Both the position numbers and the translations under genes were made by a program. Under the pieces are notes generated by a model. That model worked only from the letters and a program-made list of their open reading frames with translations, was not told where the DNA came from and searched no databases. A stretch of DNA of 64,000 bases from Squalus acanthias (lineage: Eukaryota): the NCBI GenBank assembly GCA_030390025.1, contig CM059432.1, forward strand, positions 24,306,001 through 24,370,000, given 5' to 3'. Below, in pieces: positions 4,721 to 64,000 of this stretch. The stretch's first letter is position 1. Each line of letters starts with the position of its first letter.

Positions 4721-5771
4721 AATTGCACTAATATTACTAAATGACTCACTAAGTCATCATGCACAAATTTCAAGGAACAAATGTGTATCTGTCCATAAAC
4801 ATACTGGATTTCTAACATGCTCTAAAACTCAATGTCAGCATCTGGTAACAATGTTCCTTTAGCTGGCCCAAGTCTGCGAACATTGAATTATTAGAATTCA
4901 ATGAGCCTTGCAGTGTTGCATCCCTTAAGTAATCATGCTATTATAAAACAGGCATGCAAGGTCTGGCCACTCTTAAAGCAGGTCTTACTTTTGGAGCAAC
5001 AGTACATTCAGTCTCCAAGCTGCATTAGTACGTCTTGCGTGCCAGGTATCTAGCACTAACTGCTAAAATCTGTAACATTTTACAGATGCTTCTGACCTTT
5101 ATTCAGACAAAGGCACTGAGGGTGTGTTCTCCTCAGTCCCTACTTGAAGATCAATTTTAAACTCAGCCAATCTATCAAAGTCTTAAGTGCAGAGGCATTA
5201 CTTTCCAACTTCACAGCATCTGATTCACATCACTGACTATCCTAGAGCAATCTTCAGGAAATGAGCAGAGCTCAGGCTCGAGTTCCATTGAGTTTATAAA
5301 GGGGATGTCATTCTGTAAGCTGAATTTCCTGACAGGTGAGCCTAGATATTGCCATTGGCGATATCATTGGGTGAGCACTTAACAAGTCTTTGTGACATTC
5401 TTCTGCCTGCTATTTTAGTGGAGGTGTTAACCCGTTTAAATTAAACTGGTTAAAGCTTGTGTCAAAAATATACCAGGCAGATGAAATCATATGAATATGT
5501 TAAGCATTTTCCCACTGTTATCACTCACAGTAATTTCTAGACTATAGTTCCTTGATAGTGTAGGGAAGAAAATGAAGACAAAATGGCTTGGTTTAGAAAT
5601 GTAAGCCCCTTAGGCTAACCCAGATGATATTGTACCATACATCTCCACACCTCCTATTACTCCCTATCTGGAATGCTTAAATAGTTTAGTGAGGGCAGCT
5701 GGAGCAATGGTTCATTTGACAAATTCACTGCCCAGTGCAGAAGCAAGCCTTAAAGAACAATAAATTCCTAC

Positions 5772-12711: not shown

Positions 12712-14540
12712 CTATCTCGACACCTTGGGCGGGCGTCCTCTGGGGTGCCGAGCCTGTGAGGGCTCGCCAACAGTCTGCTGCTCCTGCGGCTGTGCAGGGG
12801 TTGAGACGCCGATCTCAGTTGGGTGTGGACTCTGGTGGGGCTCTGACCGAGGACTTGTCAGTGGCATGGAAGTGTGAGCACTTGGAGAGGAGCCCACACT
12901 TCCTTGTTCTCTGCCACCATCATCCCTCTCATGGGTCAGGTCCACCTCAGCGCTTGCAAGTGGCTTGAGAGCACCTTGCTGCACATCAGGGGGGCTATGG
13001 GGACCCGTATCTGCACTGGCAGTCCTACTCAGAAGGACTTCCATGAAGGTCTGGTTTCTCTGTTCAATAGATGTCCATTGCTCCTCCAGAGATGTCATTC
13101 TATTCAGAACACTCACCATGTTTTCTGCACTCTGGCGACTTATCACCTCCATGGAGGTTGCCATCCTTTCCATGGAGATGCGTTCATGCGCCAATGACTC
13201 CGCAAAGGCTCTGCTCATGTTCGCAATGGACTCTTCCATTCGCTCCACACTTGCAGCGACCCTGGAGACAAAACCTGCCAGAGACTCCTGCATCTGTTCC
13301 TGGAGTTCCAGCACCGCTGTTCTTCTGGATGGACCTAGAGGCAGAGGGTCGACATGCAGCTGAGCCGAGCTGGGAGAGTCCTGCGCCCTCCAACGAGGAC
13401 TCTCCACTGCTTTCCCTGTCTCCACCATCTGCTGATGCTCACTTGTGAGCTGTGATATACCAGGTGACAACACTACTCTATCTCGCGAGGGTCCCACCAA
13501 GGTGTGAGTCTCTGCACTGGTGCTGGCCTGGCTGAATTGTGTTGACGCTGCACCCTCAGAGGTTTCAGCTTCCTCTGAGGAGTCTTGAGCCTCAGGCTGT
13601 TCCTCCTGGATGGTGGGGACGGGTGCTTGTGATGGATGGTCCTGTGGAGGAGTAAAGGAAAAAGTCAGAGATGTGAGGCCAAGGTGACATGCACAGTGCA
13701 TATTGCAGATGATCATAAGTCCAACTGTTAGAGCTTCAGAATCATTATCAGCGACTCATGCAATGTCAATGAGAGAGATGAACAACTATTCTGTCACCAG
13801 CTTGCTCTGCTGCGCCCGTCTGCCCGTCCCCCACTTGCGCATCATCATCGAGTCCCACGATCTCCAGGGCCGCTTCCTCCCAGGTGGTGAGCTGGGCTAC
13901 TGAGGGTGGCCCTCCTCCTGTCCTCGCTCTTTCACGCTTATTGTGAGCTCTCTTTTCCTGCAATGAGGGAGACAAGTGGTGTTTGAGTGAGAATGAAGGG
14001 GAGAGTTTATAGAATCCATCTCATAGATGCTTATAAGGAGGCAAAGATGGAGTGAGGTGGCAAGACCAAGGGCCCATCCTGTGTGTTGTAAGCTGTTTGC
14101 ATAGCATGACACTGATAGGGAGTGTGAGGGCTGCATAGTGGAATAGTTAGGTGAATGTGACCATAGAGAGAGAGGGAATGGGTAAGGGTGCAGGGATGTC
14201 AGTGTCAAGTGGGGTGTGAAGGAAGAGGTTGCTAAAGCTGAGTGCTGGTGAGGAGAGGCAAAGGGCATCAGATTGAGGGTGATGGGAAAGTCATACTCAC
14301 TTTTCTAGTGCGCACAAGGTCATGAAATCTTTTGCGGCATTGAATCCAAGATCTGTTGATCAAGGATAGAGAAGTCACCTCCTGGGCCACGTGGAGCCAC
14401 ACAGCCTTTGTTTGCTAAGGAGGCTTCTTTCTCCCTGAAGAAGGGAAGAGCACCTCCTTATGATCTCTTGCTCCATCTATCAGGGCTTGCAGGGCGGTGT
14501 CCTCGAATCTTGGAGCAGACTTGGGTTTGTTGGTACACAT
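12712..14540 (-). pseudogene. Harbinger Myb/SANT-like gene, 3 exons (14540-14301, 13957-13798, 13641-12712)
   Basis: APRFEDTALQAL...W...RSWIQCRKRFHDL|EKRAHNKRERARTGGG; GT-AG introns; in-frame TAG at 14415-14417 and a frameshift near the start of exon 3. Confidence 0.85.
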
Positions 14541-16369: not shown

Positions 16370-18110
16370 AAATAAAAACAGAAATGCTGGAAATACTCAG
16401 CCAGTCAGGCAGCATCTGTGGAGAGAGAAACAGAGTTAATGTTTCAGGTGGATGACCCTTTGTCAGAACTGGAAAAAGCTGGAACAGGTTTTCAAGCAAG
16501 TGCAGGGGCAGGGAAAGGGGGGAGGGGAGGAAAGGACAAAAGGGAAGGTCTGTGAGAGGATGGAAGGCAGGAGAGATTAAGAGACATTAAGAGATGGTGC
16601 AAGGCAAAAGGAGATGGTAATGGGACAAGTTAAAAAAACAAAAGATGGCTCTAGATGAAGTGTAAATGGCACTGGCAGAATGAAAGACAGCTGCCATGTG
16701 GGAGAGAGAAAAAAAAAATGGAAAAAGAAAAGAAGGATGGGGCAGAGGTTATGGTCTGAAATTGTTGAACTCTTATGTTAAGTCCAGAAGGCTGTAAAGT
16801 GCCTAATCGAAATATGAGGTGCTGTTCCTTGAGCTTACGTTGAGCTTCATTGGAACAGTGTAAGAGGCCGAGGACGGTGAGGTCAGAGTGGGAGTGGAGC
16901 GGAGAATTAAAGTGACAGGCGACCGGACGCTCGGGGTCTCCCTTACAGACTGAATGGAGGTGTTCCGCAAAACGGTCACCCAATCTGCGTTTGGCCTCCC
17001 CAAAGTAGAGGAGACCGCATCGTGAGCAGCGAATACAGTATACTAAATTGCAAGAAGTACAGTAAATCGCTGTTTCACCTGGAAGGAGTGTTTGGGGCCC
17101 TGGACAGTGGGAAGGGTGGAGGTAAAAGGGCAGGTGTTGCATCTCCTGCGCTTGCACGGGAAGGTGCCGGGTGAAGGGGAAGGGGTGTTGGGGGTGATAG
17201 AGGAGTGGACCAGGGTGTCGTGTAGGGAGCGGTCCCTTCGGAATGCTGAAAGGGGAGGTGAGGGAAAGATGTGTTTGGTGGTGGGATCACACTGGAGGTG
17301 GCGGAAATGGCAGAGGATGATCCGTTGAATGTGTAGGCTGGTGGGGTGAAATGTGAGGACAAGGGGATCCCTATCGTGGTCCCGGGAGGGAGGAGTAGGG
17401 GTGTGAGCAGAAGTGCAGGAAATGGAATGGACACGGTCAAGGGCCGTGTCAACCACAGTAGAGGGGAATCCTCAGTTGAGGAAAAAGGAAGACATGTCAG
17501 AAGCACTAGTATGGAAGGTGGCATCGTCAGAGCAGATGCGGCGGAGACGGAGACACTGGGAGAATGGAATAGAGTCCTTACAGTAAGCGGGGTGGGAGGA
17601 AGTGTAGTCCAGATAGCTGTGGGAGTCAGTGGGCTTGTAGTGAATGTTTGTCAATAGCCTATCCCCAGAGATGGAGACAGAGAAGTCGAGGAAGGGAAGG
17701 GAAGAGTCGGAGATGGACCATGTGAAGGTGAGGGAAGAGTGGAAATTGGAAGCAAAGTGAATGAAATTTTCTAGTTCAGGGCGAGAGCAGGAAACAGCAC
17801 CGATCCAGTCATCAATGTACTGGAAAAAGAAGTGAGGGAGGGGACCTGAGTAGAACTGGAACAAAGAATGTTCCACATAGCGCACGAAAAGGCAGGCATA
17901 GCTGGGACCTATGCAGGTTCCCATAGCAACACCTTTAATTTGGAGGAAGAGAGTGGAGTCAAAGGAGAAGTTGTTCAATGTGAGTACAAGGTCAGCCAGG
18001 TGGAGGAGGGTGGTGGTGGATGGGGACTGGTTGGGCCTCTGTTCAAGGAAGAAGCGGAGCGCCCTCAGGCCAACCTGGTGGGGGATGGAGGTGTAGTGGG
18101 ATTGGATGTT
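16370..18110 (-). mobile_element. Penelope-like element (RT + GIY-YIG + pLTR), 5'-truncated and frameshifted
   Basis: GVAMGT...PSYACLF, YIDD, YKPTDSHSYLDY, NLVYCIRCSRCGLLYFGE, GLN; 10-bp TSD AAAAGCCCAA at 16360-16369 and 18111-18120. Confidence 0.92.
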
Positions 18111-18759
18111 AAAAGCCCAACAAGATATGGATTCGTTATTGTATCTAGTAATGGGGAATGAACCAGAGCAGATAAGAGAAGTAAAAGTAGGGGAACATCT
18201 AGGCAATAGTGACCATAATATGATATGCTTTAAGATATTAATTGAGAAAGACGTAAGTATGACAAAGACCAGTGTAATAGATTGGAGAAAAATGATTTTG
18301 AGGGGCTGAGAATAGAACTTGGGAAAATAAAATGGGCAACAATATTGGCAAACAATGATGTAGAACAGCAATGGGAAACATTTAAAACGGTGTTCAACAG
18401 AGACCAGGAAAAATATATTCTGCTAAAAAACAAGAACATGCTAAACACTAATGAGACACCATGGATGAATAAAGCCATAAGGGAAAACTTGAGAGTAAGG
18501 AAAGAGGCATACATTAAGTACATGGACAGCAAGGGAGAGCATGACAAGAGATAATATGAAGAAATTAGGAGAAAAGTAAAAAAAACAATTATGAAGGCAA
18601 GAGGAACTATGAAATTAAATTATCAAGGAACATAAAACAAAATAGTAAAATATTTTACAGGCACGTAAATAAAAAAAGGAAGGTCGGGATGGGAATAGGG
18701 CCACTAAGGGATGGACAGGATAATGCCACAGGCAACGGTAGAGAGATGGCCGAGATAAT

Positions 18760-19524: not shown

Positions 19525-21459
19525 ATTAACTAATTACTTTGCTTCAGTATTTACCAGGGAGATAGAACAGGTGGAGATTACATTGAATGATGATACTAGC
19601 AAGGAGATAACTGCATTTAAGATAAAACGAGGAGATATATTAAATAAACTAATGAAACTCAAAGAGGATAAAACCCCTGGTCTGGACGGATTACATTCGC
19701 ATTTTAAAAGAATCTAGGGAAGAGATAGCAGAGGCATTACTACACATATTTAATAATTCATTCGAAAAGGGTGCAGTGCCAGAGGACTGGCAGATAGCTA
19801 ACGTAATACCTATATTTAAGAAGGGAGATAGAACATGTCCAGAGAACTATAGACCAGTCAGCTTAACATCGGTGGTAGGAAAAATAATAGAATCCCTGCT
19901 AAAGGAGAAAATGGAAGAACATCTAGAAACCAAAAATATAATAATGAATAGTCAGCATGGATTTCAAAAGGGAAAGTCTTGCTTGACCAATCTCATTGAA
20001 TTTTTTAAAGAGGTAACAGAGAGAGTAGACAAGGGTAATGCAATAGCTATAATTTACTAGATTTTCAAAAGGCCTTCGATAAGGTACCACATAATAGACT
20101 AATGAATAAGGTCAGGAAATGTGGAGTCAGGGGACAAGTAGCACAATGGTTAGCTAGCTGGCTTCAAGACAGAAAACAGAGAGTAGGGGTAAAAGGTAGC
20201 TATTCAGAGTGGCAGAAGGTGGGAAGCGGTGTTCCACAAGGATCAGTGCTGAGACCACTGTTGTTCATACTTTATATTAACGATTTAGACTTTAGAATCA
20301 AAAACACAATTTCTAAATTTGAGGACGACACCAAATTAGGGGGGATAGTCAATACTGAGGAGGACTGCAACAAATTAAAAGAAGACATTAATAAACTTGC
20401 AGAATGGGCATATATTGGCAAATGAAATTCAACACAGATAAATGTAAGGTACTACATTTTGGTAAGAAAAATAGGGAGGTCACATATTACTTGGAAAATA
20501 AGAATTTAAATGGGGTAGAGGAGCAAAGGGATCTCGGAGTACAAATACACAAATCACTAAAAGTATTGACACAGGTTAACAAAGCCATTAAAAAAGCAAA
20601 CCAAGCACTAGGGTTTATTTCTAGAGGGATAGAATTGAAAAGTAGTGAAGTTATGCTAAACTTGTATCAAACCTTGGTTAGACCACACTTGGAGTACTGC
20701 ATACAATTCTGGTCACCGTATTATAAAAAGGATATAGAGGCACTGGAGATGGTGCAGAGAAGATTTACAAGGATGATACCAGAAATGCGAGGGTATACCT
20801 ATCAGGAAAGGATGATCAGGCTGGGTCTCTTTTCTCTTGAAAAGAGAAGGCTGAGGGGTGACCTAATAGAGGTCTTTAAAATCATGAAAGGTTTTGATAG
20901 AGTAGATACAGAGAGAGTGTTTCCACTTGTGGGGAAGAGAAAAACTAGAGGCCATCAATATAAGATAGTCACCAAGAAATCAAATAGGGAATTCAGAAGA
21001 AACTTCTTTACCCAGAGAGTGGTGAGAATGTTGAACTCGGTACCACAGGGAGTGGTTGAAGTGAATAGTATAGATGTATTTAAGGGGCAGTTAGATAAGC
21101 ATATGAGGGAGAAGGGAATAGAGGGTTATGCTGATAGAGTTAGATGGGGAAAGACGGGAGGAGGCTCGAGTGAAGCATAAAAGCCGACATGGACTGGTTG
21201 GGCCAAATGGCCTGTTTCTGTGCCATATATCCTATGTAATGTGGGCCAAGATTGGTGTCAACTAACCATCTACTCCTTATTTACCTCATCTCTTTTACTC
21301 GCTTCACCTTTTGTGGTATTCTGCACTGGAACCTTAACTCTTCACCTATTTTTCTCAATTAACAAAATAATAGCTTAATATCTATCCACTTTGAATTATT
21401 TTACAATTTATATCCTACTAAACCAGGAAAATACAGGAACCATTACCAGGGTTGGTATG

Positions 21460-21932
21460 TTTTTTTTAATTTATTCATTCATGGGATGTGGGCGTCGCTG
21501 GCAAGGCCAGCATTTATTGCCCATCCCTAATTTCCCTTGAGAAGGTGGTGCAGTCCATGTGGTCAAGGTACTCCCACAGTGCTGTTAGGGAGGGAGTTCC
21601 AGGATTTTGACCCAGCGACGATGAAGGAACGGCGATATACTTCTAAGTCAGGATGGTGTGTGACTTGGAGGGGAACTTGGAGGTGGTGGTGTTCCCATGT
21701 GCCTGCTGCCCTTGTCCTTCTAGATGGTAGAGGTCGCAGATTTGGGAGGTGCTGCCGAAGAAGCTTTGGCAAGTTGCTGCAGTGCATCTTGTAGATGGTA
21801 CACACTGCAGCCACGGTACGCCAGTGGTGGAGCGAGTGAATGTTTGAGGCGGTGGATGGGGTGCCAATCATGGGGCTGCTTTGTCTTGGATGGTGTCAAG
21901 CTTCTTGAGTGTTGTTGGAGCTGCACTCATCC
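21460..21932 (-). mobile_element. Zenon-like CR1-clade LINE 3' fragment
   Basis: Same 3' sequence as 6955-7972 with an A-rich tail. Confidence 0.85.
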
Positions 21933-22054
21933 ATGTGATCAGGCATCAGGAGTTGAGATCTTTGTTGGCAATTTATCCTTACCTCTAAACTGGGACATCA
22001 TATTATTGCATTGTACTCCACCAAATAGGCCAGCAATGAAATTGCCAAAAGAGC

Positions 22055-22300
22055 GAGAGGAGAGATGAGGAGAATTGTTTTTATGCAGCAATTTGTTATA
22101 ATCTGGAATGCACTGCCTGAAATAGTAGTGGAAACAGATTCAATAGTAACTTTCAAAAGCTAATTGGATATATGCATGAAGGTGAGAAAATTGCAGGGCT
22201 ATGGGGAAAGAGCAGGGGAGTGGGACTAATTGGGTAGCTCTTTCAAAGAGCCAGCACAGGCATGATGGGCGAAATGGCCTCTTTATGTGCTTTAAGATTT
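22055..22300 (+). mobile_element. CR1 3' fragment
   Basis: CR1 C-terminus (WNALP) and 3' UTR. Confidence 0.75.
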
Positions 22301-22301
22301 T

Positions 22302-22536
22302 ATGAGAAGTCGCACAACACCAGGTTATAGTCCAACAGTTTTATTTGAAATCACAAGCTTTCGGAGCTATTGATCGCCCCTTCCTCAGGTGAAGGGGCGA
22401 TCACCTGAGGAAGGGGCGATCGATAGCTCCGAAAGCTTGTGATTTCAAATAAAACTGTTGGACTATAACCTGGTGTTGTGCGACTTCTCATTTTTGTCCA
22501 CCCCAGTCCAACACCGGCATCTCCGCATCATGACCA
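22302..22536. mobile_element. Penelope-derived fold-back mini-element (family B) with two hammerhead motifs
   Basis: ~90-bp inverted arms plus unpaired tail; TTAAGATTTTATGA duplicated at 22292-22305 and 22537-22550; same sequence as the ends of 29585-30663. Confidence 0.85.
22401..22442 (+). ncRNA. Minimal type I hammerhead ribozyme motif (mirror copy on - at 22351-22392)
   Basis: TCAC-CTGAGGA-A-GGGGC..GCTCC-GAAA-GCTT-GTGA. Confidence 0.65.
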
Positions 22537-24449
22537 TTAAGATTTTATGACCTCTATAAAGCCACAAACTCACAACCAGCAGATTTTGAATAACAAATGG
22601 TCCCAGGGAATAAATAATTGTTGTAGCCTAGGCTGAGAAGCATGTGGTCCATTATTTATCAGTTTTATCAAGTTTTACAACAAAATGTAACTCTATGTGC
22701 AAAACCTGAGCTTTATCCTGTTTAAGCAATATAGATATATCTTATATTTTTCAGTTTTCCATTTGCCCAACAAGTGAAAAGAAACTCTTGCTGTATAGGA
22801 ATGTGCAGTCATTTGAATGGTGCAGTTGAAGTCAGTCTTCAATTTTCTTGCATTTTCCTTCAGTTGATAACTACAGTTGTCGTCACTCATACACACTTGT
22901 CAAGTCTCCTTCATTTGGTGTGACAATCACTTAGTTTTGTTTAAAAATGTAACTTACTTTGACGTATCTCTCCCTGAAAAATAAACGCATCTCACCATAT
23001 GTTTAAATGGGCTTGCAATTTGCCTCACTCTTTTTAAACATAAATTTCACTCCTAACTATTATTCAGTTTTGACAGCTCTGCTCATCTTCTTGCATTATC
23101 CAGACTCAGTGCTGTTGGGCAAGGCATGGCTTTGGTCTCATCAGAATATAGCTGTAGTGGCTTCGTAACAACTGAGATTCTTAAGCCTCTGGGAAGACAA
23201 GGGATAACAACAAACTTGCAGAACAGCAGTTAATACCCTATTGTTTAACTCTTTCACAAGGGAGACAGATAATTACATAGGAATACATTACATAGGATAT
23301 ACGGCACAGAAACAGGCCATTCGGCCCAACCAGTCCATGCCAGCGTTTATGCTCCACATGAGCCTCCTCCCGTCTTTCCTCATCTAAATCTATCAGCATA
23401 ACCCTCTATTCCCTTTTCCCTCATATGCTTGTCTAGTCTCCCCTTAAATGCATCGATACTATTCGCTTCAACCACTCCCTGTGGTAGCGAGTTCCACATT
23501 CTCACCACTCTTTGGGTAAAGAAGTTTCTTCTGAATTCCCTATTGGATTTCTTGGTGACTATCTTATATTGATGGCCTCTAGTTATGCTCTTCCCCACAA
23601 GTGGAAACATTCTCTCTGTATCCACTTTATCAAAATTTTTCATAATTTTATAGACCTCCATTAGGTCATCCCTGAGCCCTCCCCCTCAAGAGAAAAGAGA
23701 ACCAGCCTGTTCATCCTTTCCTGATATGTATACCCTCGCATTTCTGGTATCATCCTTGTAAATCTTCTCTGCACCCTCTCCAGTGCCTCTATATCCTTTT
23801 TATATGGCGACCAGAACTCCAAGTGTGGTCTAACCAAGGTTCGATACAGGTTTAGCATAACTTCCCTACTTGTCAATTCTATCCCTCTAGAAATAAACCC
23901 TAGTGCTTGGTTTGCTTTTTTTATGACCTTGTTAACCTGTGTCGCAACTTTTAGTGATTTGTGTATTTGTACTCCTAGATCCCTTTCTTCCTCTACCCTA
24001 CCTAGACTCGCACCCTCCAAGTGATAAATGACCTCCCTATTCTTCCTACCAAAATGTAATACGTTACATTTATCTGTGTTGAACTTCATTTGCCAATTAT
24101 ATGCCCATTCTGCAAGTTTAATGTCCTCCTGTAACTTGTTGCAGTCCTCCTCAGTATTGACCATCTCCTACCCCCCCTCCCCACCCCCCACTTCCCGCCC
24201 CCGCGATGTGGTGTCATCCACAAATTTAGAAATTGTGTTTTTGATTACTAAGTCTAAATCGTTAATGTGAACAGCAGTGGTCCCAGCACTGATCCTTATG
24301 GAACACCTCTACCCACCTTCTGCCACTGTGAATAGCTACCCTTTACTCCTACCCTCTGCTTTCTGTCCTGGAGCCAGCCAGCAATGTATTATAAAAACTA
24401 TTATGGAAATACTCAGCAGGTCAGGCAGCATCTGTGGAGAGAGAAACAG

Positions 24450-24486
24450 AGTTAACGTTTCAGGTCGATGACCCTTCGTCAGAACT
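24450..24486 (-). ncRNA. Hammerhead ribozyme motif in Penelope pLTR
   Basis: AGTT-CTGACGA-AGGGTC ATC GACCT-GAAA-CGTT-AACT on the minus strand. Confidence 0.65.
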
Positions 24487-25178
24487 GGAAAAAGCTGGAG
24501 ATGGAACAGGTTTTTAAGCAAGTGTAGGGGCAGGGAAAGGGAGGAGGGGAGGAAAGAACAAAAGGGAAGGTCTGTGATAGGATGGAAGGCAGGAGAGATT
24601 AAGAGACATTAAGAGACATTAAGAGATGGTGCAAGGCAAAAGGAGATGGTAATGGGACAAGTTAAGAAACAAAAGATGGCTCGAGATGAAGTGTAAATGG
24701 CACTGGCAGAATGAAAGACAGCTGCCATGTGAGAGAGAGAAAAAAAAATGGAAAAGAAAGATAGGGATAGAGGTTATGGTCTGAAATTGTTGAACTCTAT
24801 GTTGAGTCCAGAAGGCTCTAAAGTGCCTAATCGAAAGATGAGGTGCTGTTCCTTGAGCTTACGTTGAGCTTCACTGGAACAGTGTAAGAGGCCGAGGACA
24901 GTGAGGTCTGAGTGGGAGTGGAGCGCAGAATTAAAGTGACAGGCGACCGGAAGCTTGGGGTCACCCTTACGGACGAAACGGAGGTGTTCCACAAAGCGGT
25001 CACCCAATCTGCATTTGGTCTCCCCAGTGTAGAGGAGACCGCATTGTGAGCAGCGAATACAGTATAATAAATTGCAAGAATTACAATTAAATCGCTGTTT
25101 CACCTGGAAGGAGAGTTTGGGGCCGTGGACAGTGGGAAGGGTGGAGGTAAAAGGGCATGTGTTGCATCTCCTGCGCTT

Positions 25179-25998
25179 TGTAGAAAGTATATACAGTCCC
25201 TTAATTTTAATATTTCTTGAAATGCTTTGCCAGGCAAAAAGGTTTTACAAAGTGAAATAAAGTTGGTAAATGTAACAAGCAGTCTTTCACTGATAAGGCA
25301 GGAAACATGGTTGTGACTGCAGGGGGTAGTGATAGTCAACAGAGATAAACAAACCCTCTTAGCTTTGCAGACATGATAGCTTTCTCTGAGGTTAAAGGGG
25401 AGAAGTCAAACCTTTGAAGTTTTGAAATGCAGAATACGGCGTAACTCATGAACCGAACCAAGTGGTTTTCTGCCACCTTTGTAAACTTTAGGAGTGAATG
25501 AACAATTTTGGGCTGTGATAAGGATAAGCCACACAGGATGAGTTAATGTAAACATTTGACAGCTCAAACAGCTCAGACCAACATTAAAGGAACATTTCAC
25601 TATCTCTGAATGAATGATTTAATACAAAAGACAAGGAAAGCTGTATAAAGCACAGTAGCTAAAGAATATCAGCACTGCAGTCAGAAGAAGGTGGCTTGGC
25701 CAGTCATCTCGCCTACGAGGATCAAGCTGCAGTCAGAGGAAGAGGGGCCTGGCCAGTCTTTTCGCTTACGAGGACCTACAATCAACGCTGGACTGATCAT
25801 TGGCGGGTGGTTGTGTGTATGATTTCCTGTAATATTATTGGTGAACTGCTTGAATAGTGGTTGGGGTTTTGAATCTGTCTTAGGAACAATAAAAGGTTAA
25901 AGACAGAACCCGTGTGTCTGGTGTAATTTCTCATAATTCTCAAGTCCGAACTCTATAACCTGTTGGATGGGGCGAGGGGTAATTCCGCACGTCTTACA
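25179..25998 (+). mobile_element. Solo LTR (820 bp), Gypsy- or class I ERV-like
   Basis: TGTAGA...TCTTACA ends, 4-bp TSD GCTT (25175-25178, 25999-26002), TATAAA ~25644, AATAAA ~25888. Confidence 0.85.
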
Positions 25999-26913
25999 GC
26001 TTGCACGTGAAGGTGCCGGACGAAGGAGAAGGGCTGTTAGGGGTGATTGAGGAGTGGACCAGGGTGTCGCGGAGGGAGTGGTCCCTTCGGAATGCTGAAA
26101 GGGTGGGGAGGGGAAGATGTGTTTGGTGGTGGGATCACGCTGGAGGTGGCGGAAATGGCGGAGGATGATCCGTTGAATGTGGAGGCCGGTGGGGTGAAAG
26201 GTGAGGACAAGGGGAACCCTATCATGGTTCCGGGAGTGAGGGGAAGGGGTGAGAGCAGAAGTGCGGGAAATAGAATGGACACGGTCAAGGGCCGTGTCAA
26301 CCACAGTAGAAGGAAATCCTCGGTTGAGGAAAAAGGAAGACATGTCGGAAGCACTAGCATGGAAGGTGGCATCGTCAGAGCAGATGCGGCGGAGACGGAT
26401 AAACTGGGAGAATGGAATAGAGTCCTTACAGGAAGCGCAGTGGGAGGAAGTGTAGTCCAGATAGCTGTGGGAGTCAGTGGGCTTGTAGTGAATGTTTGTC
26501 AATAGCCTATCCCCAGAGATGGAGACAGAGAAGTAGAGGAAGGGAAGGGAAGAGTCGGAGATTGACCATGTGAAGGTGAGGGAAGAGTGGAAATTGGAAG
26601 CAAAGTGAATGAAATTTTCTAGTTCAGGGTGAGAGCAGGAAACAGCACTGATCCAGTCATCAATGTACCGGAAAAAAAGGTGAGGGAGGGGACCCGAGTA
26701 GGACTGGAACAAAGAATGTTCTACATATCCCACGAAAAGGCAGGCATAGCTAGGACCCATGTGGGTTCCCATAGCAACACCTTTAATTTGGAGGAAGTGA
26801 GTGGAGTCAAAGGAGAATCCTATCACAGACCTTCCCTTTTGTTCTTTCCTCCCCTCCCCCCTTTCCCTGCCCCTACACTTGCTTAAAAACCTGTTCCATC
26901 TCCAGCTTTTTCC

Positions 26914-26950
26914 ATTTCTGACGAAGGGTCATCGACCTGAAACGTTAACT
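26914..26950 (+). ncRNA. Hammerhead ribozyme motif in the inverted pLTR
   Basis: CTGACGA-AGGGTCATCGACCT-GAAA-CGTTAACT. Confidence 0.6.
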
Positions 26951-27184
26951 CTGTTTCTCTCTCCACAGATGCTGCCTGAGCTGCTGAGTATTTCCAGCAT
27001 TTTCTGTTTTTATTTCAGCAAGCTATTTTGCTACTTGTCCCCTGACTTGGCATTCTCTCTGACCTTGTTCATCAGTCCATTATGGGGTACCTTATTGAAG
27101 GCCTTCTGAAAATCTAGATAAATTACTACTACTGCATTACCATTGTCTACTCTCTCTGTTAACCCTTCAATATCTGAATAAGAT

Positions 27185-28738: not shown

Positions 28739-29209
28739 AGTTCCACCCTTGCGGAGGGTGACTCAAGCCTGCCCTACAGACCCCAGCAAGCGCCCTATCG
28801 ATCAGTAAAGCAAGGCAGCCAATCTGATGACATTTAAAATAAAAACTTGAATGATTTGGAAGTCTAGGCCTCTTCTTTGATGTGGATCCTATTAGTGGGG
28901 CCTATATTTGCCTTCCAGAGACCTGTAGCTTCCACTCACTGAGCATAATAGCTACCACACAAATACCTCTTCCCTGCTGAGAAGCAGAAGTGGGAACTCA
29001 TGTCTTAGAGAACCCACCCAATTTTCTGATGTTCACTGTGCCCAAGTGATTCAGTGCTTAGATCCAGAAAAAGCTCTCTGAATTTGTGTAAAGAGTGGGC
29101 TTGATGGCCCAAGTGGCCTATCCTCATACCTTATTTGCTTCTTTTCTTAAAAGTTTTATTTTTAAAGTTTTACTTATACAGCCATACCAGGACAGCTCTC
29201 TAATATTGG

Positions 29210-29301
29210 TTCGGATGAAAGGTCATCGACCTGAAACGTTAACTTTGTTTCTCTCTCCACAGATGCTGCCTGATCTGATTTCCTTCATTTTCTGTTTTTA
29301 A
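29210..29301 (+). mobile_element. ~92-bp Penelope family A pLTR insertion beginning at the hammerhead core
   Basis: CGGATGA-AAGGTCATCGACCT-GAAACGTT; flanked by CTCTAATATYGG at 29198-29209 and 29302-29313. Confidence 0.7.
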
Positions 29302-29584: not shown

Positions 29585-30663
29585 AAAGTGAGAAGTCGCA
29601 CAACACCAGGTTATAGTCCAACAGTTTTATTTGAAATCACAAGCTTTCGGAGCGGCTGCTCCTTCGTCAGGTGAAGTGAAGGAATACGAATCGGCAAAGC
29701 ATATATAGACAGAGAACAATGCCTGTGCAGCGTACAATGTCAGACGACTACATTTAATCCTCCTGACTGCCTTTCGTCACACCTCGGCAGAGAAACAATC
29801 AGGTCAGCCAGGAAGGCACCACATCAAAGACATAGCAAGATACAACTGAGACAATGAGGTGGGGTCACAGGGGGTCTAATGTGTCAAATGCTGCAGTCTG
29901 TATGGAAAACCATAAACTTTAAAATGTTTACTTTTTTTTTTACTGGAAATCACATCTGTGAACAAGCCAACGACGACTCGAGTCTGGATGACTCTATGTC
30001 ATGTAGCGTGACATGAACCCAAGATCCCGGTTGAGGCCGTCCTCATGAGTGCGGAACTTGGCTATCAGTTTCTGCTCGATGATTTTGCGTTGTCGTGTGT
30101 CTCGAAGGCCACCTTGGAGAACGCTTACCCGCAGATCCGAGCAGAAACTGATAGCCAAGTTCCGCACTCATGAGGACGGCCTCAACCGGGATCTTGGGTT
30201 CATGTCATGCTACATGTCGTAGAGTCATCCAGACTCGAGTCGTCATTGGCTTGTTCACAGATGTGATTTCCAGTAAAAAAAAAGTAAAAATTTTAAAGTT
30301 TATGGTTTTCCATACAGACTGCAGCATTTGACACATTAGACCCCCTGTGACCCCACCTCATTGTCTCAGTTGTATCTTGCTATGTCTTTGATGTGGTGCC
30401 TTCCTGGCTGACCTGATTGTTTCTCTGCCGAGGTGTGACGAAAGGCAGTCAGGAGGATTAAATGTAGTCGTCTGACATTGTACGCTACACATGCATTGTT
30501 CTCTGTCTATATATGCTTTGCCGATTCGTATTCCTTCACTTCACCTGACGAAGGGGCAGCAGCTCCGAAAGCTTGTGATTTCAAATAAAACTGTTGGACT
30601 ATAACCTGGTGTTGTGCGACTCCTCACTTTTGTCCACCCCAGTCCAACACCGGCATCTCCGCA
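29585..30663. mobile_element. Palindromic Penelope family B insertion (two ~493-bp inverted arms, 59-bp spacer, ~32-bp tail)
   Basis: Left arm plus spacer encodes GIY-YIG end ...QRKIIEQKLIAKFRTHEDGLNRDLGFMSRY on -; TSD CTTTGTCCTTCCA at 29572-29584 and 30664-30676. Confidence 0.92.
30541..30578 (+). ncRNA. Hammerhead ribozyme motif (mirror copy on - at 29637-29674)
   Basis: TCAC-CTGACGA-A-GGGGC AGCA GCTCC-GAAA-GCTT-GTGA. Confidence 0.7.
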
Positions 30664-37249: not shown

Positions 37250-37431
37250 AATAACAACAGAAAATGCTGGAAACACTCAGCAGGCCAGGCAGCATCTGTG
37301 GAGAGAGAAACAGAGTTAACGTTTCAGGTCTGTGACCGTTCTTCCAGTTCTGACAAAGAGTCACAGACCCAAAACATTAACTCTGTTTCTTGTTATTTCA
37401 GATTTCCAGCATCCGCAGTATTTTGCTATTG
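37250..37431. mobile_element. Penelope family A fold-back mini-element (older, degenerate hammerheads)
   Basis: 16-bp TSD TAAGAATGTTATCCAA at 37234-37249 and 37432-37447; inverted pLTR halves plus tail. Confidence 0.85.
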
Positions 37432-45215: not shown

Positions 45216-45416
45216 AGTTGTAGCCCTTGAATGGATGACGGTACACATCATTTCCTGCTCCCTCTCGCCCCTTTGGCAAGCTGCCACTGGCAAGCCGAAT
45301 CCGAACCCAGAGCTTGTTACAAATCACATGAGATCAGCTGAGCATGATTTTGTACTGCACAAAGCCTTGATTCCACTATTTCAACACCAAGACTAAAAAA
45401 TCTATATTTTGGTTTT

Positions 45417-45653
45417 ACGATAGCAAAATACTGCGGATGCTGGAAATCTGAAATAACAACAGAAAACGCTGGAAAAACTCAGCAGGCCAGGCAGCATCCG
45501 TGGAGAGAGAAAGAGAGTTAACGTTTCAGGTCGATGACCTTTCGTCAGACGTGTTCTGACGAAAGGTCATCGACCTGAAACGTTAACTCTCTTTCTCTCT
45601 CCACGGATGCTGCCTGGCCTGCTGAGTTTTTCCAGCGTTTTCTGTTGTTATTT
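45417..45653. mobile_element. Penelope family A fold-back mini-element with two intact hammerhead motifs
   Basis: 99-bp inverted arms (45451-45549, 45555-45653) that read as perfect, 5-nt loop, 34-bp tail, 14-bp TSD TATATTTTGGTTTT. Confidence 0.92.
45553..45588 (+). ncRNA. Hammerhead ribozyme motif (mirror copy on - at ~45516-45549)
   Basis: GTT-CTGACGA-A-AGGTC ATC GACCT-GAAA-CGTT-AAC. Confidence 0.7.
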
Positions 45654-46914
45654 TATATTTTGGTTTTGTTTGGAGCTGATTTGAGGTGAAAGTACAGCTT
45701 TAATTATATTAAACAACCAAAAATATTGGTTGACTATTAGTTATGGAAGCTCTTGTGAGAGAATAAGATTGTACGAACGAGAAAAGGTTGTCAGCGATCA
45801 GGTCATTCCATCATCTGTATCATCTTTCAGGATCTAATTTGACTATTTTGCACCTTTGCCTTCTCCAAATCCATATCTTTTTACTCCTTGCTGAATCAGG
45901 AATCAATCTAACTCCACTTGAAAGCTTCAACTGAATCAGTATTTATTGCACCAGGCAGCTGTCTATTGCACAAGCCAATGATAAGCATAAATTATTCCTT
46001 ACGCTGAGTCTAGTTTATGGCTTTTTTTTTTAAAGTGTGTAGTCATGTCCTCTAATTTCTATGTCCTGATTTTCCATAAAATGTATCTACATATCTACTT
46101 TTTTGATTCAATATTTGCAGAGCCTCAAATACAAGACTGGAGTTTACTGAATATTCAAGAGGAGTGAGACATAAGCCTCAGTATGTTAAACCAATTAACC
46201 TAACATCTGTAGCAAGGGAAATGTTTGAGGGCATTGTACAGGATGATGTCCATGGATATATAAAAAGTACACAAGCCATAGGGGAACAATCAGCATGGTT
46301 TTACAAAAAATAGATTTTCCAATCATTGGTATTTTAATGGATTAACATTCATGTTAAATTAATACCAATTAGGAAATCTAGGTTAACAAGTCACCACACA
46401 ACACAGAGCGACAAAAATTATTTGTTTTTGAGTAACCAAGATTCTCGATGGATACAAATTAATTGTGGAAGTCATTGGATCAAGTTCTCCTGCATTATCG
46501 TCTATATAGAACTGAGCAAGTGAGGGTAGACTAAACCTCATGCATAATTTTTTTGGTATGGACACTGAGCCAAGTTAAATATAATTATGAAAACAAAACG
46601 TGGAGTCTTTTACTATTTTTATGCCCAAGAAGGTGTAAGTTAAACATTGTGTAATCAAGTGAAATTTGCGGTGTTAACCTTTTGCTGCTGTTTAACGTCT
46701 TGCTTCTTTAACAAAGCTAATTCGTAGCTTATAATTTAAGTCAAACGATTAATCATTTTTCCTTTGTCCAAAGGCTAGGAGAACACAAGACAGTTGCTAT
46801 TATTTTCAGTGAGCAAATTATAAGTAACAAAGGTGGCCTGTTTGATCTTGGTTTTGCTACATTATCAGATATCAAGCATGTAAATTTGGTTCATAGGGAT
46901 TGAGGGCTTACTTA

Positions 46915-48770: not shown

Positions 48771-49554
48771 TGTTTGGATCACTTTGTTTCATTTAAATAC
48801 TAACACTCTAGGATATTGGGATGGTTTTTCCTTTGGTATTCTGCCTGAAATCGGGTGGGATAGTGGGAGAAAAGGCAACTATCCCACCCGATTTCAGGCA
48901 AAATACTGAAGGCCTACTGTTGCCTCACTGCCCTAACCTAGATTTCCTTCAGGATCCCAGCTCATTTCCGTCCCGTCCACCCATTTTATCACTGCTCCCT
49001 AGAATCATCAAGTGTACCAGTTCAGTAGGCCTGCGGTAGCACCAGAAATATATTCAGGTGCTCCGAATGAAAGGAGAGAGCCCAGTCGAGGTCTTTAGCA
49101 AATGATCTAGTCCACGCATCTGTTAATGATGCCTGTTACCTCTGGGTGCTGCAACAGTGGTCCTGCTGAAGCCCTGCCTTGGTTTTCCTGGGGCCTTTGG
49201 TGGACTCCTGCTTGGTGTTGGTATTCCATTCAAGCCCACCATCAATACTCCTGATCCCGGGTGGTTCAGCCCTGTAGGGGTAGAGTAAGGATAATCCAAC
49301 CCATTGTCTCCAATCAATACCTCTTCTCCCTTTCTTCCTTCCCTATCATATTTGATAGTGAGAGGAGTAGACAGTTGCTTCTGTATATGTAAATACAAGT
49401 CCTGAATACTGTTTTGCCTCCCATGTACCAGGGACATAACAGAATGAATACATGAACCCTTAGTATGGGAGAGGGGGGGGGCAGATGGAGATTATTTTAG
49501 ATCCAGGAATATTTAATTTCTATTCCTGATTCAACTGCAGTTATTTTTTAGTTA

Positions 49555-59842: not shown

Positions 59843-60353
59843 GGGGTAAAAATTCACTTGGTTGCGCCTCCCGTTAGCGCCTTAAGAGGGCGCTAATGGG
59901 GCGTTAAGCCGCTAACGCCCGGGCGCAGCGATGTTTGCGCCGCTCGAGAACTTAACTTGAGATTGTGCGGCGGCGCTAAAACTTACTGCTGCGATCTCCT
60001 GCGCGCGCAGATTGTGACGTCATTCCATGGTGCAACGCCCTTGGGGCGCCCCGGAGCGGAAATTGAGTGGCGCCCCCTGCCTTACCGCCTGGCGCTTCCA
60101 ACGACCGGAAGACTGGAACGCTATCAATCGGTGTGGGGCTGGGGGGGGCGCTATTTAAAGGGGGCCTCTTCCTGTCTTTTTCTGTGGTCGACATTTATGC
60201 ACCACTCGTTCTGAGAGAGAGAGAGAGATTCGGAGAGAGAGAGAGAGAGACTTCTACATTGACTCAACGCTTTGTGAGGTAGTTTTGCCTATTCATCCTA
60301 ACTTTGTTGCTACTTTAGTTGCTGTACCTCATTACTTTTCTGGCAAAGAGAAA

Positions 60354-61514
60354 ATGGGGGCTGCAATGATTGGGGGCGTCGTCCTGCTCCAGCTGAATCG
60401 GAGGATACCAAGACGCAGACAGAGAGTGGCAATGATGGCCAGACGGAGGAGGGCCATCAGGCGCATGTACAGGAGAGCTTACCCTCCCAGGGTATATCGT
60501 GAACAGCTCTCCTACATCCATATGTCCGAGGAGCTGTGTTTGCGAAGGCTGCGATTCAGCAAGGAGCTGGTCACTGAGCTCTGCCACCTGCTGCAGCCAG
60601 ATCTGCAGCCTCAGCTGAGGTCCAGGACGTCTCTGTCGGTGGCAGTGAAGGTCACAGTGGCTTTGAACTTCTACGCCACTGGCTCATTCCAAGCTGCTGT
60701 TGGGGACCTCGCCAATATCTTCCAGTTTGCGGTGCATCGCTGCATCCGGCAGGTCACCAATGCCCTCTTCAGAAGGAGACGAGACTTCATCTCTTTCCCT
60801 ATGACCCCAGACAAGCAGCGTGACCGCGCTCTGGGCTTTGCGAGGGTAGCGGGCTTCCCCATGGTGCAGGGCGCCATTGACTGCACGCATGTGGCTTTGC
60901 GTGCTCCGCGAGAGAATGCAGAGGAATTCAGGAATAGAAAGGGGTTCCATTCCTTGAATGTGCAGTTGGTCTGTGATGACAGACAGGTGATACTCGCTGT
61001 CAATGCCCACTATCCGGGCAGCTGCCACGATGCTTTCATCCTGCGCCAGACTACTGTGGCAGAAGTTTTCGAGGCACCACATCAGCCAGTTGGTTGGCTT
61101 CTGGGGGACAAGGGGTACGCATTGAGCACCTGGCTGATGACACCGCTCCGTACGCCAAACACCCCTGCTGAGCTGCTGTACAATGAAAGCCATCAAGCAA
61201 CCAGGAACATTATTGAGCGCACAATCGGCGTGCTGAAACAACGGTTCCGCTGTCTGGACCATTCCGGAGGAGCCCTGCAGTACTCGCCTGAGCAAGTTTC
61301 GAACTTCGTAGTCGTGTGCTGCATGTTGCACAACATGGCAGTCCTCAGGACCCAGCCAATGCCACCAGGCCTTGTAGCACCACCAGAGGAGGAGGAGGAA
61401 GAGGAGGAAGAGGACGAGGACGATGATCATCAGCAGCACCAAGGCAGGAGGGCGGCCCACAATGGTCAAACTGCAAGTGCCGTCCGTCAACGACTAATAG
61501 CAAGCCGTTTCTAG
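60354..61514 (+). CDS. Harbinger DDE transposase (HARBI1-like nuclease), intact ORF
   Basis: ALNFYATGSFQ (HTH region), GAIDCTH, NRKGFHSLNVQLVCD, PGSCHD, LLGDKGY, IERTIGVLKQRFRCL; first ATG at 60354. Confidence 0.93.
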   Translation: MGAAMIGGVVLLQLNRRIPRRRQRVAMMARRRRAIRRMYRRAYPPRVYREQLSYIHMSEELCLRRLRFSKELVTELCHLLQPDLQPQLRSRTSLSVAVKVTVALNFYATGSFQAAVGDLANIFQFAVHRCIRQVTNALFRRRRDFISFPMTPDKQRDRALGFARVAGFPMVQGAIDCTHVALRAPRENAEEFRNRKGFHSLNVQLVCDDRQVILAVNAHYPGSCHDAFILRQTTVAEVFEAPHQPVGWLLGDKGYALSTWLMTPLRTPNTPAELLYNESHQATRNIIERTIGVLKQRFRCLDHSGGALQYSPEQVSNFVVVCCMLHNMAVLRTQPMPPGLVAPPEEEEEEEEEDEDDDHQQHQGRRAAHNGQTASAVRQRLIASRF

Positions 61515-61808
61515 GGCCCCTGCCATTGCTACAAACACTAATCAACCCAGCACGCAACCCCTAAGCCGGCCAAGGCACCAATAATTCCAACCACCAGCCA
61601 TGTATATTTTGAATACAGAAACTTATTTATTTTACAAACTCTGTGTGTGTCAATTCCTCATGACAAACTCATAGAAATAAACACAAAAAAACAGTCAATA
61701 ACATAACTGGTTCTCACAACCTGGAGATAATGTCCAAAACACTAAACAAAAGTTGGACCATGAACCTCGGCCTTTAATAAAAAAATGACCAGCATTTTGT
61801 CACACCTC

Positions 61809-63792
61809 CTACTTTTTGCCCTTCGAGGGTGATCTCCTTCCCTTGCGCACTTCCCCCCTTCTAACCCTACTGCTCCTCCGTAATGGGACCTCAGTGGCTG
61901 CAGCAAGGCTGGTGGAAGGCTGCTGCTCGTCAGACCCTGACACTGCAGATGCCCCTGAAGGACGGCCTCGACCACTTCTGGGCCTGGAGGGCCCGGCTGC
62001 AGACTGCACCAACTCTGCATGGGCGGCAGCAGTCTGTCCTACAGGCGGTGGCAAGTGCAGTGGAGAAGTGACAGTGTAGGCAGCAGGAATGCTGTCATCG
62101 TGAGAGAGGCCAGCAACTCCCTGCTCGCCCGACACACTGGCACTCCCACGGGGCAGCACTTCAGCATCCGGAGCAATCTGCCGGAGAACAGATTTCTGGC
62201 CTGCTGCGGCGCGGTGACAGCCCCGGGGACATGTGCACGAACCATCGAGGTTGGCAGCAGTCTGTGCTCGCGTGGCCTCCATCTGAGTCTGTATGAGAGC
62301 AGTCAGAGGTGGGATCACGGCAGCCAGTGACTGAATTGCAGCACTAAGCGTTAGTGTGGCATCCGCCTGTGCTACAGCGAAGTGCTCCACACTCCTTGCC
62401 AGTGACTCAATGCAATCGGGCACCCTTCCCACTGCACCCATGAGCTCAGTGTGCATGCACACCGCCTGGGTGTTCATTTCTGCAATCAGCCGCTCCTCCT
62501 CTGCGTCCATTGCAGTAGGAGTGTCTGGCATACTCTCCCTCTGGGGAGAAGGCCCCCGTTCTTTCCTACCCCCCCATGGCATTGCTGCAGCCCGCTGGGT
62601 CCTGGAGCTTCACCATCATCAGCCCCTTCCCCCCTGCTCCCCTCCGGGGAAGGCGTGTTCCCAGTGTGGGCATGGGCTTCCTCGGGAGAGGGTGGCACTG
62701 ATGCTCTGGCTTCCTCTTCCTCCTCAGCTGCAGCATCACTCCCAGTGGCAGCTTCAGGGCCCGTCTCCTCAGCTGGTGAATCACCATCTGAAAGCAGGAA
62801 GGTACAAAAGTGGCTTTAGCGTGAGGACAGGGTGGCAGTAAGGGAGGAATAAGTGCAGCGAGTTAGCAAGTTGGATTGAAAGTGTCAAAGGCTGGTGTTG
62901 TGAGGGACAAGTGGAAGGACAGAGGACAAAAAGGTGATGACCTTACCATTGCTGTCCAGAACGGGGTCGGCGTCTCCAGTGGCGACGGGACCGATCACCC
63001 GGCTTGCCACAATCCTGTGGACGCGCTCCTCCAGATCGCTGAGGGGTTGCAGCTGAAGCCGCCTTCCACCTGTCCGTTGCTGCTGTCTCCTATTATGAGC
63101 CAGCTTAGCCTGCAAGAAAAAGGACAGCATCTGAGTAAATATGCAGCCATGGTCTTGCCTGATGTGCCTCCCATAGGTGAATAGCCCTTACAATATACAG
63201 CCATGGTCTTGCCTGATGTGCCTCCCATAGGTGAATAGCCCTTACAATATGCAGCCATGGTCTTGCCTGATGTGCCTCCCATAGGTGAATAGCCCTTACT
63301 GTATGCAGCCATGGTCTTGCCTGATGTGCCTCCCATAGGTGAATAGCCCTTACAATATACAGCCATGGTCTTGCCTGATGTGCCTCCCATAGGTGAATAG
63401 CCCTTACTGTATGCAAAGTGTGGAATGTGTGTGTGTGTTTGATGAAAGGGCCATAGGTGTTGGATGAGTGTTGTGCTTTGGGGTTTTAAGACCCTCTGGC
63501 CATAGAGTGAGGTTGAGATGGAGGGATGGAGAGGTATTGAGAAAAAGCCACTCACCCTGACGACCCGAGTGAGGTCGTTGAACTTTTTGCGGCATTGAGT
63601 ATGGGTCCTGGGCACCATGCTCCTGGAGGAGACGCTCTGAGCCACCTCCCTCCACACTCTTCTGAACTCGCGTGGCAAAGGCCTCCTGCCACTCTCAGGG
63701 AACAGCATACATCGTCTGCGCTCCACTGCGTCAACCAGAGCATCCAAGGCCCGCTCGGTGAAGCGATGAGCGCGTTCTCTCACCCTCTCCAT
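61809..63792 (-). CDS. Harbinger Myb/SANT DNA-binding gene, exons 63792-63556, 63109-62947, 62787-61809; one frameshift at a G7 run
   Basis: RAHRFTERALDAL...WREVA...RTHTQCRKKFNDL|AKLAHNRRQQQRTGG; canonical GT-AG sites; basic C-terminal tail. Confidence 0.82.
63141..63415. repeat. 54-bp tandem repeat, 5 units, in Myb intron 1
   Basis: Units differ only in the CAATATAC / CAATATGC / CTGTATGC segment. Confidence 0.95.
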
Positions 63793-64000
63793 GCTTGGCA
63801 GCAAAATGGATTACAGGTCTCTCCAGGCTGAGATTCAAGGCTGCAATGAGCAGGGTGTGGCTGGGGAGCAAGTGGCCCCCCCCGCTTTAAGAAGTGTCCG
63901 GCGCCAGTGTGTCTGTGTTCCCTCGCTAACTGGCAGCAGCTGCGCTGCGCTCGCGCGCTGAGTTAGCGCCTCACTCCTTGGCCTTTGCGCCTTAAGAGAG

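Follow-up and report, generated by a model that had tools for sequence, protein, structure and literature searches.

Within a 64,000-nucleotide stretch of Squalus acanthias DNA (hereafter the window, part of contig C8 of a 3.7-Gb genome), a 237-base insert at 45417..45653 forms a hairpin with a hammerhead-like core on each strand, which raises the question of whether it is a ribozyme system replicating in its own right or a product of a known retroelement. It is a real, young, miniature form of a known type of Penelope-like element (PLE) insertion, not a new ribozyme system; as a ribozyme device, it is ordinary. The whole insert consists of two mirror-image copies of a PLE end, and the layout given in the original prediction holds: perfect 99-bp arms, a 5-nt loop, a 34-nt tail, and an exact 14-bp target-site duplication (TSD). 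Along the forward strand, the left TSD copy (45403..45416, 14 bp), present singly at the empty site in a relative, is followed by the 34-nt PLE tail (45417..45450, minus strand), which in near-full copies continues into the 5' UTR and ORF. Next come the tailed pseudo-LTR (pLTR) arm (45451..45549, 99 bp, sense on the minus strand), without a mismatch to the other arm, and the central junction (45550..45554), a CGTGT loop in which GT is native to the plus-strand arm and CGT is extra, and which is unique in the genome. The tail-less pLTR arm (45555..45653, 99 bp, plus strand) ends outwardly at the boundary of single tail-less copies and is followed by the right TSD copy (45654..45667, 14 bp), an exact match to the left one.

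The tailed arm and tail are 100% identical to long copies elsewhere (e.g., L155 and L166), so the perfection of the arms needs no selection, only youth. In a relative's contig (run X19, ~95% similar across the right flank), the left flank runs straight into one copy of the target site; the insertion is thus lineage-specific. All of this describes what is very probably a young, extremely shortened, head-to-head PLE insertion. An inverted copy, a one-sided tail, and a TSD constitute standard PLE anatomy in published descriptions (Craig 2021, PMC8557442; Arkhipova 2013, PMC3846280), and the hairpin is the shortest form of that layout. The inverted-pLTR insertions of EN+ PLEs illustrated there (Pen2a_Av, PMC3846280; PMC8557442 Fig. 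2) likewise have head-to-head arms, a one-sided tail of 30-40 bp, a TSD, and a parent with RT and C-terminal GIY-YIG domains; correspondingly, we find pLTR origin, a head-to-head inverted 5'-truncated copy, a single 34-nt tail, and a TSD with its empty site. The hairpin class differs from these insertions in having no ORF at all, in that both arms stop at the hammerhead, and in its thousands of copies; its TSDs are also longer, at 13-16 bp versus 8-10 bp in the Adineta examples of those two papers.

As predicted, the arms are made of Penelope pLTR; they derive from the pLTR of an element that encodes RT plus a C-terminal GIY-YIG endonuclease. The full layout is seen in L167, where one TSD encloses an inverted tail-less arm, a tandem copy that is truncated but has its pLTR and tail, a unit of 3,193 nt, and a further pLTR with tail. 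The L167 ORF begins shortly 3' of the tail and matches the Pfam RT (E 8e-5) and GIY-YIG (E 4e-4) models, both below the curated cut-off. Read directly, the protein contains a CX4CxxC linker before GIY-YIG and a cysteine pair inside the GIY-YIG motif. Neptune is defined by a CX2-5CxxC linker, which Nematis has too (PMC8557442); by its linker and cysteine motifs, the parent element is Neptune-like. Two families are represented. An exact 23-mer of the hammerhead in the family of our hairpin (family A), followed by a non-C base 76 nt on, has 25,981 genome matches, and a comparable pattern for a second family (family B) has 40,584; between the two families, helices I, II, and III show compensatory changes. 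Separately, four long loci contain short head-to-tail pLTR units of ~230-360 nt (L154:1481-1794, L165:1283-1611, L170:2414-2873, L173:5679-6100), which fuse the start of the ORF to sequence upstream of the hammerhead and are retrozyme-like non-autonomous derivatives. A young subfamily (L052, L058, L065, L070, L132) has C rather than U at hammerhead position 17, which gives a GUC triplet.

To place the hairpin among its relatives, we counted hairpins genome-wide with a pattern of exact 16-mer arms, which returned 2,221; the expectation of a very abundant class is therefore borne out, with at least that number present, and 1,105 matches carry both core strings. A sample of 51 (our hairpin and the first 50 listed, all 50 on C1) was characterized individually. 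None of the 51 has two tails, and 50 have one full tail; an exact TSD of 13-16 bp, variable in sequence, flanks 33. Both cores are kept in 16 hairpins, and at least one is lost in the other 35; only six combine both cores with a helix I of at least 3 bp. The 51 loci have 49 distinct centre strings, although these strings include arm variants, such that breakpoint types recur more often than the count implies. Five loci share a breakpoint type with 2-nt microhomology, yet they include either polarity and more than one arm variant, an indication that each was joined independently. Where a tail-less copy stands alone with a TSD of its own (L017, L221, L223), it stops at the boundary of the tail-less arm, as do contigs of relatives.

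The junction of our hairpin occurs once in the genome as a 25-mer; an 18-mer search allowing one mismatch returned 12 further scattered matches, none identical, and the closest hairpin among nine of these (L257) has another loop-II variant and its tail on the opposite arm. The original prediction had left undecided whether such hairpins replicate as units or re-form at each insertion. Given the unique junction, the 49 centres in 51 loci, the lack of any two-tailed hairpin, and the presence of two complete hammerheads in only six, the hairpins appear to be mostly re-formed at insertion; unit replication is not borne out for the hairpin studied here. MITEs and fold-back elements have symmetric terminal inverted repeats next to a short TSD of fixed length, and many copies of one such element share the same interior and ends. 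Here the tail is one-sided, the TSD spans 13-16 bp with variable sequence, and the interiors differ from locus to locus.

A few locally clustered common junctions form the exception, and our hairpin is not among them. One odd family-B junction recurs at five loci that span 2.7 Mb (L247-L251, G000 C1:12.2-14.9 Mb) and is absent from the rest of the genome. These loci have unrelated flanks and separate TSDs (12-13 bp in four, the fifth assigned by eye); of the two arms, one hardly changes and the other is variable, and the tail is found now on one side, now on the other. Segmental duplication was considered for this cluster and rejected, as the flanks align only in patches of other repeats. Similarly, a palindromic family-A junction, identical in L102 and L103 (C1:29.08 and 30.29 Mb), has three copies genome-wide, two of them 1.2 Mb apart. 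Both clusters speak for a hairpin that is a non-autonomous element, MITE- or retrozyme-like, transcribed and re-inserted as a whole. Nevertheless, we consider this account very improbable: beyond the unique junction and the diversity of centres, even L247-L251 differ in tail side and in the sequence of one arm, so whole units were not copied there. Junctions can spread locally, either with read-through RNA serving as one of two templates or by gene conversion at fragile hairpin tips; an assembly effect is also possible.

We then asked what remains of the ribozyme. The core string, the extra A, helix II, and the AACGTT palindrome are found on both strands as claimed, in the form of minimal type I hammerhead cores. 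On the plus strand, the minimal hammerhead spans 45553..45587, with a 3-bp helix I, the core from 45556, a 5-bp helix II, a palindromic helix III, and a predicted cut after 45584; on the minus strand, the minimal core with helix II and AACGTT spans 45517..45549, with helix I down to 1 bp and a predicted cut at 45520/45519. Helix I is thus shorter on both strands than the 4-5 bp of a minimal type I motif, while long copies have 4 bp. Among 64 copies in long context, helix II is 5 bp in 59 with a variable loop, and position 17 is U in 60 and C in 4; judged by this pattern of conservation, the parent's motif is a real minimal type I hammerhead. A search of Rfam with E allowed to reach 1 found no hammerhead; its matches were to miRNA-like hairpins and scored under the gathering threshold. 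Metazoan PLE minimal type I hammerheads (PMC4209133) share with the hairpin a short helix I, an extra base before helix II, and a palindromic helix III that requires a dimer. In the Schistosoma cases described there, paired hammerheads lie on opposite strands 100-700 bp apart; here the cores are separated by 7 nt and enclosed in a 99-bp duplex, and helix I keeps 3 bp in one and 1 bp in the other.

The idea of a functional switch between hammerhead and double-stranded RNA that cleaves read-through transcripts can point to intact cores and helix II in our hairpin, to the preservation of a 5-bp helix II around a variable loop, and to the restriction of position 17 to U or C, as a hammerhead allows. 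That conservation, however, is a property of the parent elements; among the 51 hairpins, one or both cores are gone from 35. The predicted folding energy of the hairpin is -206.9 kcal/mol (z = -31), equalled by none of 200 shuffled sequences, and forcing the hammerhead fold costs +54 and +55 kcal/mol on the two strands, with a helix II probability of ~1e-17. Each strand contains one sense motif, placed 3' of the antisense arm and hence transcribed after it, and there is no second sense copy in cis with which to form the dimeric helix III. In the assays reported by Cervera and de la Pena 2014 (PMC4209133), monomers of minimal motifs of this kind failed to cleave and dimers did so weakly, and cleavage by an Anolis PLE hammerhead required protein in the reported experiments (PMC11167929). 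We regard the switch as the most improbable of the readings, and neither it nor the broader proposal of a non-autonomous ribozyme system gains support, given the unique junction, its variation among loci, and the loss of cores. According to the folding model, the ribozyme motifs are predicted to be locked inactive inside the hairpin; the hammerheads would be passengers from the parent element, inactive in read-through RNA. The main effect on the host, if the hairpin is transcribed, is likely to be long dsRNA. Two presumed RNA runs (X1 and X4) placed no contig on the flank, which says little about expression, as they may come from other organisms and the filter drops contigs.

Non-LTR retrozymes (bioRxiv 10.64898/2026.07.22.740005; see also PMC7229834) are likewise ORF-less, derived from PLE pLTRs, and equipped with type I hammerheads. 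As described in the preprint (bioRxiv 10.64898/2026.07.22.740005), they are arranged in tandem, head to tail, and contain two or more sense ribozymes, whereas our hairpin is head-to-head with one ribozyme motif per strand; no head-to-tail tandem with at least two complete hammerheads is present in it.

We propose that the hairpin is an insertion of an endonuclease-bearing PLE, very probably built on site from two short cDNAs that were primed by both cut target strands and joined mid-way. The RT-GIY-YIG protein would almost certainly begin with a staggered cut, ~14 bp apart. One DNA end would then probably prime at the end of the RNA tail and the other ~34 nt upstream, so that only one of the two arms acquires a tail. 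Somewhat less surely, both would prime on the upstream pLTR of an uncleaved transcript and run off its 5' end before the hammerhead after ~100-135 nt. The 3' ends of the cDNAs would, with high likelihood, be joined by microhomology or a few extra bases to give a new junction each time. For a PLE protein, cutting and extension of both strands, two RT start sites that flank the tail, an uncleaved RNA template, and a predicted dimer have been reported (Frangieh 2024, PMC11167929). That in vitro system (Poseidon-Ac) matches the proposed mechanism in its two RT start points delimiting the tail, its cutting and extension of both strands, and its uncleaved RNA; it differs in that the parent here has a Neptune-type CX2-5CxxC linker and an ORF that starts after the tail, and the account of that system, as far as covered here, does not deal with inverted products or their junctions. 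A further likeness is to twin priming. In LINE-1 twin priming, cDNA synthesis starts from each of the two target strands and microhomology joins the resulting cDNAs, which yields an inversion without a duplicated 3' end. Two-strand priming and joining by microhomology are thus common to both, the difference being that our hairpin duplicates the 3' end in inverted form.

The second arm might instead arise by snap-back, in which a single cDNA reaches the 5' end of the RNA, folds on 2-4 nt of microhomology, and copies itself. Self-priming was favored for junction palindromes in an earlier study (Arkhipova 2013, PMC3846280), an idea close to this one, and a common junction type here does have 2-nt fold-back microhomology (L010, L012, L105, L106, L124). 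Arms within a locus are also more alike than arms between loci (2.1 versus 4.6 differences per 55 nt; 0 of 10,000 permutations; 43 of the 51 loci, with eight dropped for short arms), and private variants are common to both arms of a locus (L003, L010, L013, L106, L111). This likeness fits one source per insertion; snap-back synthesis or later conversion between arms explains it equally well. Yet snap-back leaves unexplained why the second arm usually ends at the boundary of single tail-less insertions; the longer arm at the centre can be either one, many junctions have inserted bases, and some loci pair different arm variants (L012, the window insertion at 29585, and some family-B rows). We therefore judge snap-back unlikely. 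Mismatched arm pairs, such as that at 29585 and similar family-B rows, suggest two templates or two pLTR copies.

We mapped the 5' ends of 114 arms that had not been selected for a hammerhead, both arms of our hairpin included, with position 0 set at the T before the core. Thirty-three ends fall within the 20-nt window from -5 to +14, in the 5' half of the hammerhead, 6 lie near the predicted cut site (+28 to +35), and 51 lie more than 40 nt upstream; of the 10 placed at -40 to -6, about 8 look artefactual by eye. With the 23-mer pattern, in which ends downstream of +10 cannot show, a count by eye puts the ends of ~34 of 100 rows in the stretch from +10 to -5; of the remaining 66, ~1 ends within the 40 nt beyond it. 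In family A, the edge falls on the A of CAGTT, a position that agrees with the initiator consensus and at the same time coincides with the bottom of helix I. Family B tells these two features apart: there, an initiator-like A marks the edge 7 nt before the core and 3 nt beyond helix I. In both families, which are unrelated, the ends cluster not at the cleavage site but at an initiator-like A immediately ahead of the hammerhead. Among relatives, contigs have the same 3' boundaries, and their loose 5' ends lie near the hammerhead.

Three other sources of these ends were considered and rejected. Ribozyme cleavage as the main source conflicts with the 6 of 114 ends near the site and with ~1 of 100 rows that ends exactly there (by eye). 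A block where helix I begins would account for the ends in family A, but those in family B sit 3 nt further up. An intron of 369 nt with its end at helix I, modelled on the case of D. virilis, is unsupported: the genome holds no spliced copy, and 15 of 116 cases inspected show no such joint.

We also examined the base preceding those arms that start exactly at the edge and are joined to non-PLE DNA. It is G in 13 of 20 cases in family B (G versus A) and in 18 of 45 in family A (G versus A or T); these counts were made by eye, with p between 0.005 and 0.04 depending on the background. In single cases, the preceding G is extra (L189) or derived from the target (L212). Copying of a cap would leave an extra G, as is known for other RTs. 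The pile-up of arm ends and the modest excess of a preceding G suggest, from sequence, copying to a capped RNA end. Against this, one arm extends past the edge in ~7 of 49 twin-core hairpins, by eye. An internal promoter is described for the Drosophila pLTR (Schostak 2008, PMC2377424), but transcription in D. virilis starts far upstream of helix I (PMC2377424, PMC4209133). Further upstream in L167, at ~4760-4775 (~518-532 nt upstream of the hammerhead, in the endonuclease-coding region), ~7 long arms end within 15 nt; this cluster is possibly a second start site or a joining hotspot.

The edge signal and the local junction clusters are the two leads that remain. Tentatively, and with much less assurance than for assembly from two cDNAs as such, the thousands of mini-hairpins may record an undescribed PLE step. 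In it, a dimeric enzyme would use both target strands as primers on the upstream pLTR of an uncleaved RNA, capped and initiated a few bases ahead of the hammerhead, and would extend them as far as the cap. Finished hairpins may, in addition, sometimes seed nearby, half-templated insertions that inherit their junctions. By title and abstract, we found no paper on mini-hairpins of shark PLEs or on the 5' edge of such hairpins; they may already be described in supplements, in Repbase, or in Dfam. The origin of inverted pLTRs and one-sided tails is called unresolved in the relevant sections of PMC8557442 and PMC11167929. Because the minimal products are young, number in the thousands, and have ends that can be mapped, a census can test this question; these products also yield exact predictions for the in vitro system: start sites, the 5' edge, the extra G, and junction types.

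The window contains several other PLE copies. Of the five similar inserts proposed within 64 kb, three are hairpins (our own, 37250, and 22302) and 29585 is an inverted insertion; the set nonetheless mixes both families, and 29210 is no hairpin. The insert at 37250..37431 (plus strand) is a same-family hairpin with an internal deletion and a 16-bp TSD, and 29207..29301 (plus strand) is a same-family single tail-less arm that starts at the hammerhead edge. The RT/GIY-YIG relatives reported at 16370 and 24385 are present: the former (16370..18115, upper end approximate, minus strand) is a 5'-truncated same-family copy that ends in a tail-less pLTR, and the latter (24385..27018, minus strand) is a longer, interrupted same-family copy with RT and GIY-YIG remnants between inverted pLTR arms. 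Family B is represented by a hairpin with an AAGCTT helix III and a 14-bp TSD (22302..22536, plus strand) and by a 1.08-kb inverted insertion with a 13-bp TSD (29585..30663, plus strand), whose arms are ~98% identical overall yet differ at two hammerhead positions (29631-29670 versus 30545-30584). Two CR1/L2-like RT fragments, inverted and ~90% complementary, lie on either side of the 22302 hairpin (20414-24097). Within 60159-63810, judged by motifs, an ORF at 60159-61514 (plus strand) looks like a Harbinger/PIF-type transposase and one at 62995-63810 (minus strand) like a Myb/SANT-like partner; a similar low-complexity ORF is present at 12712-13755. Finally, a perfect 23-bp inverted repeat with a 13-nt loop is present at 48842-48900.
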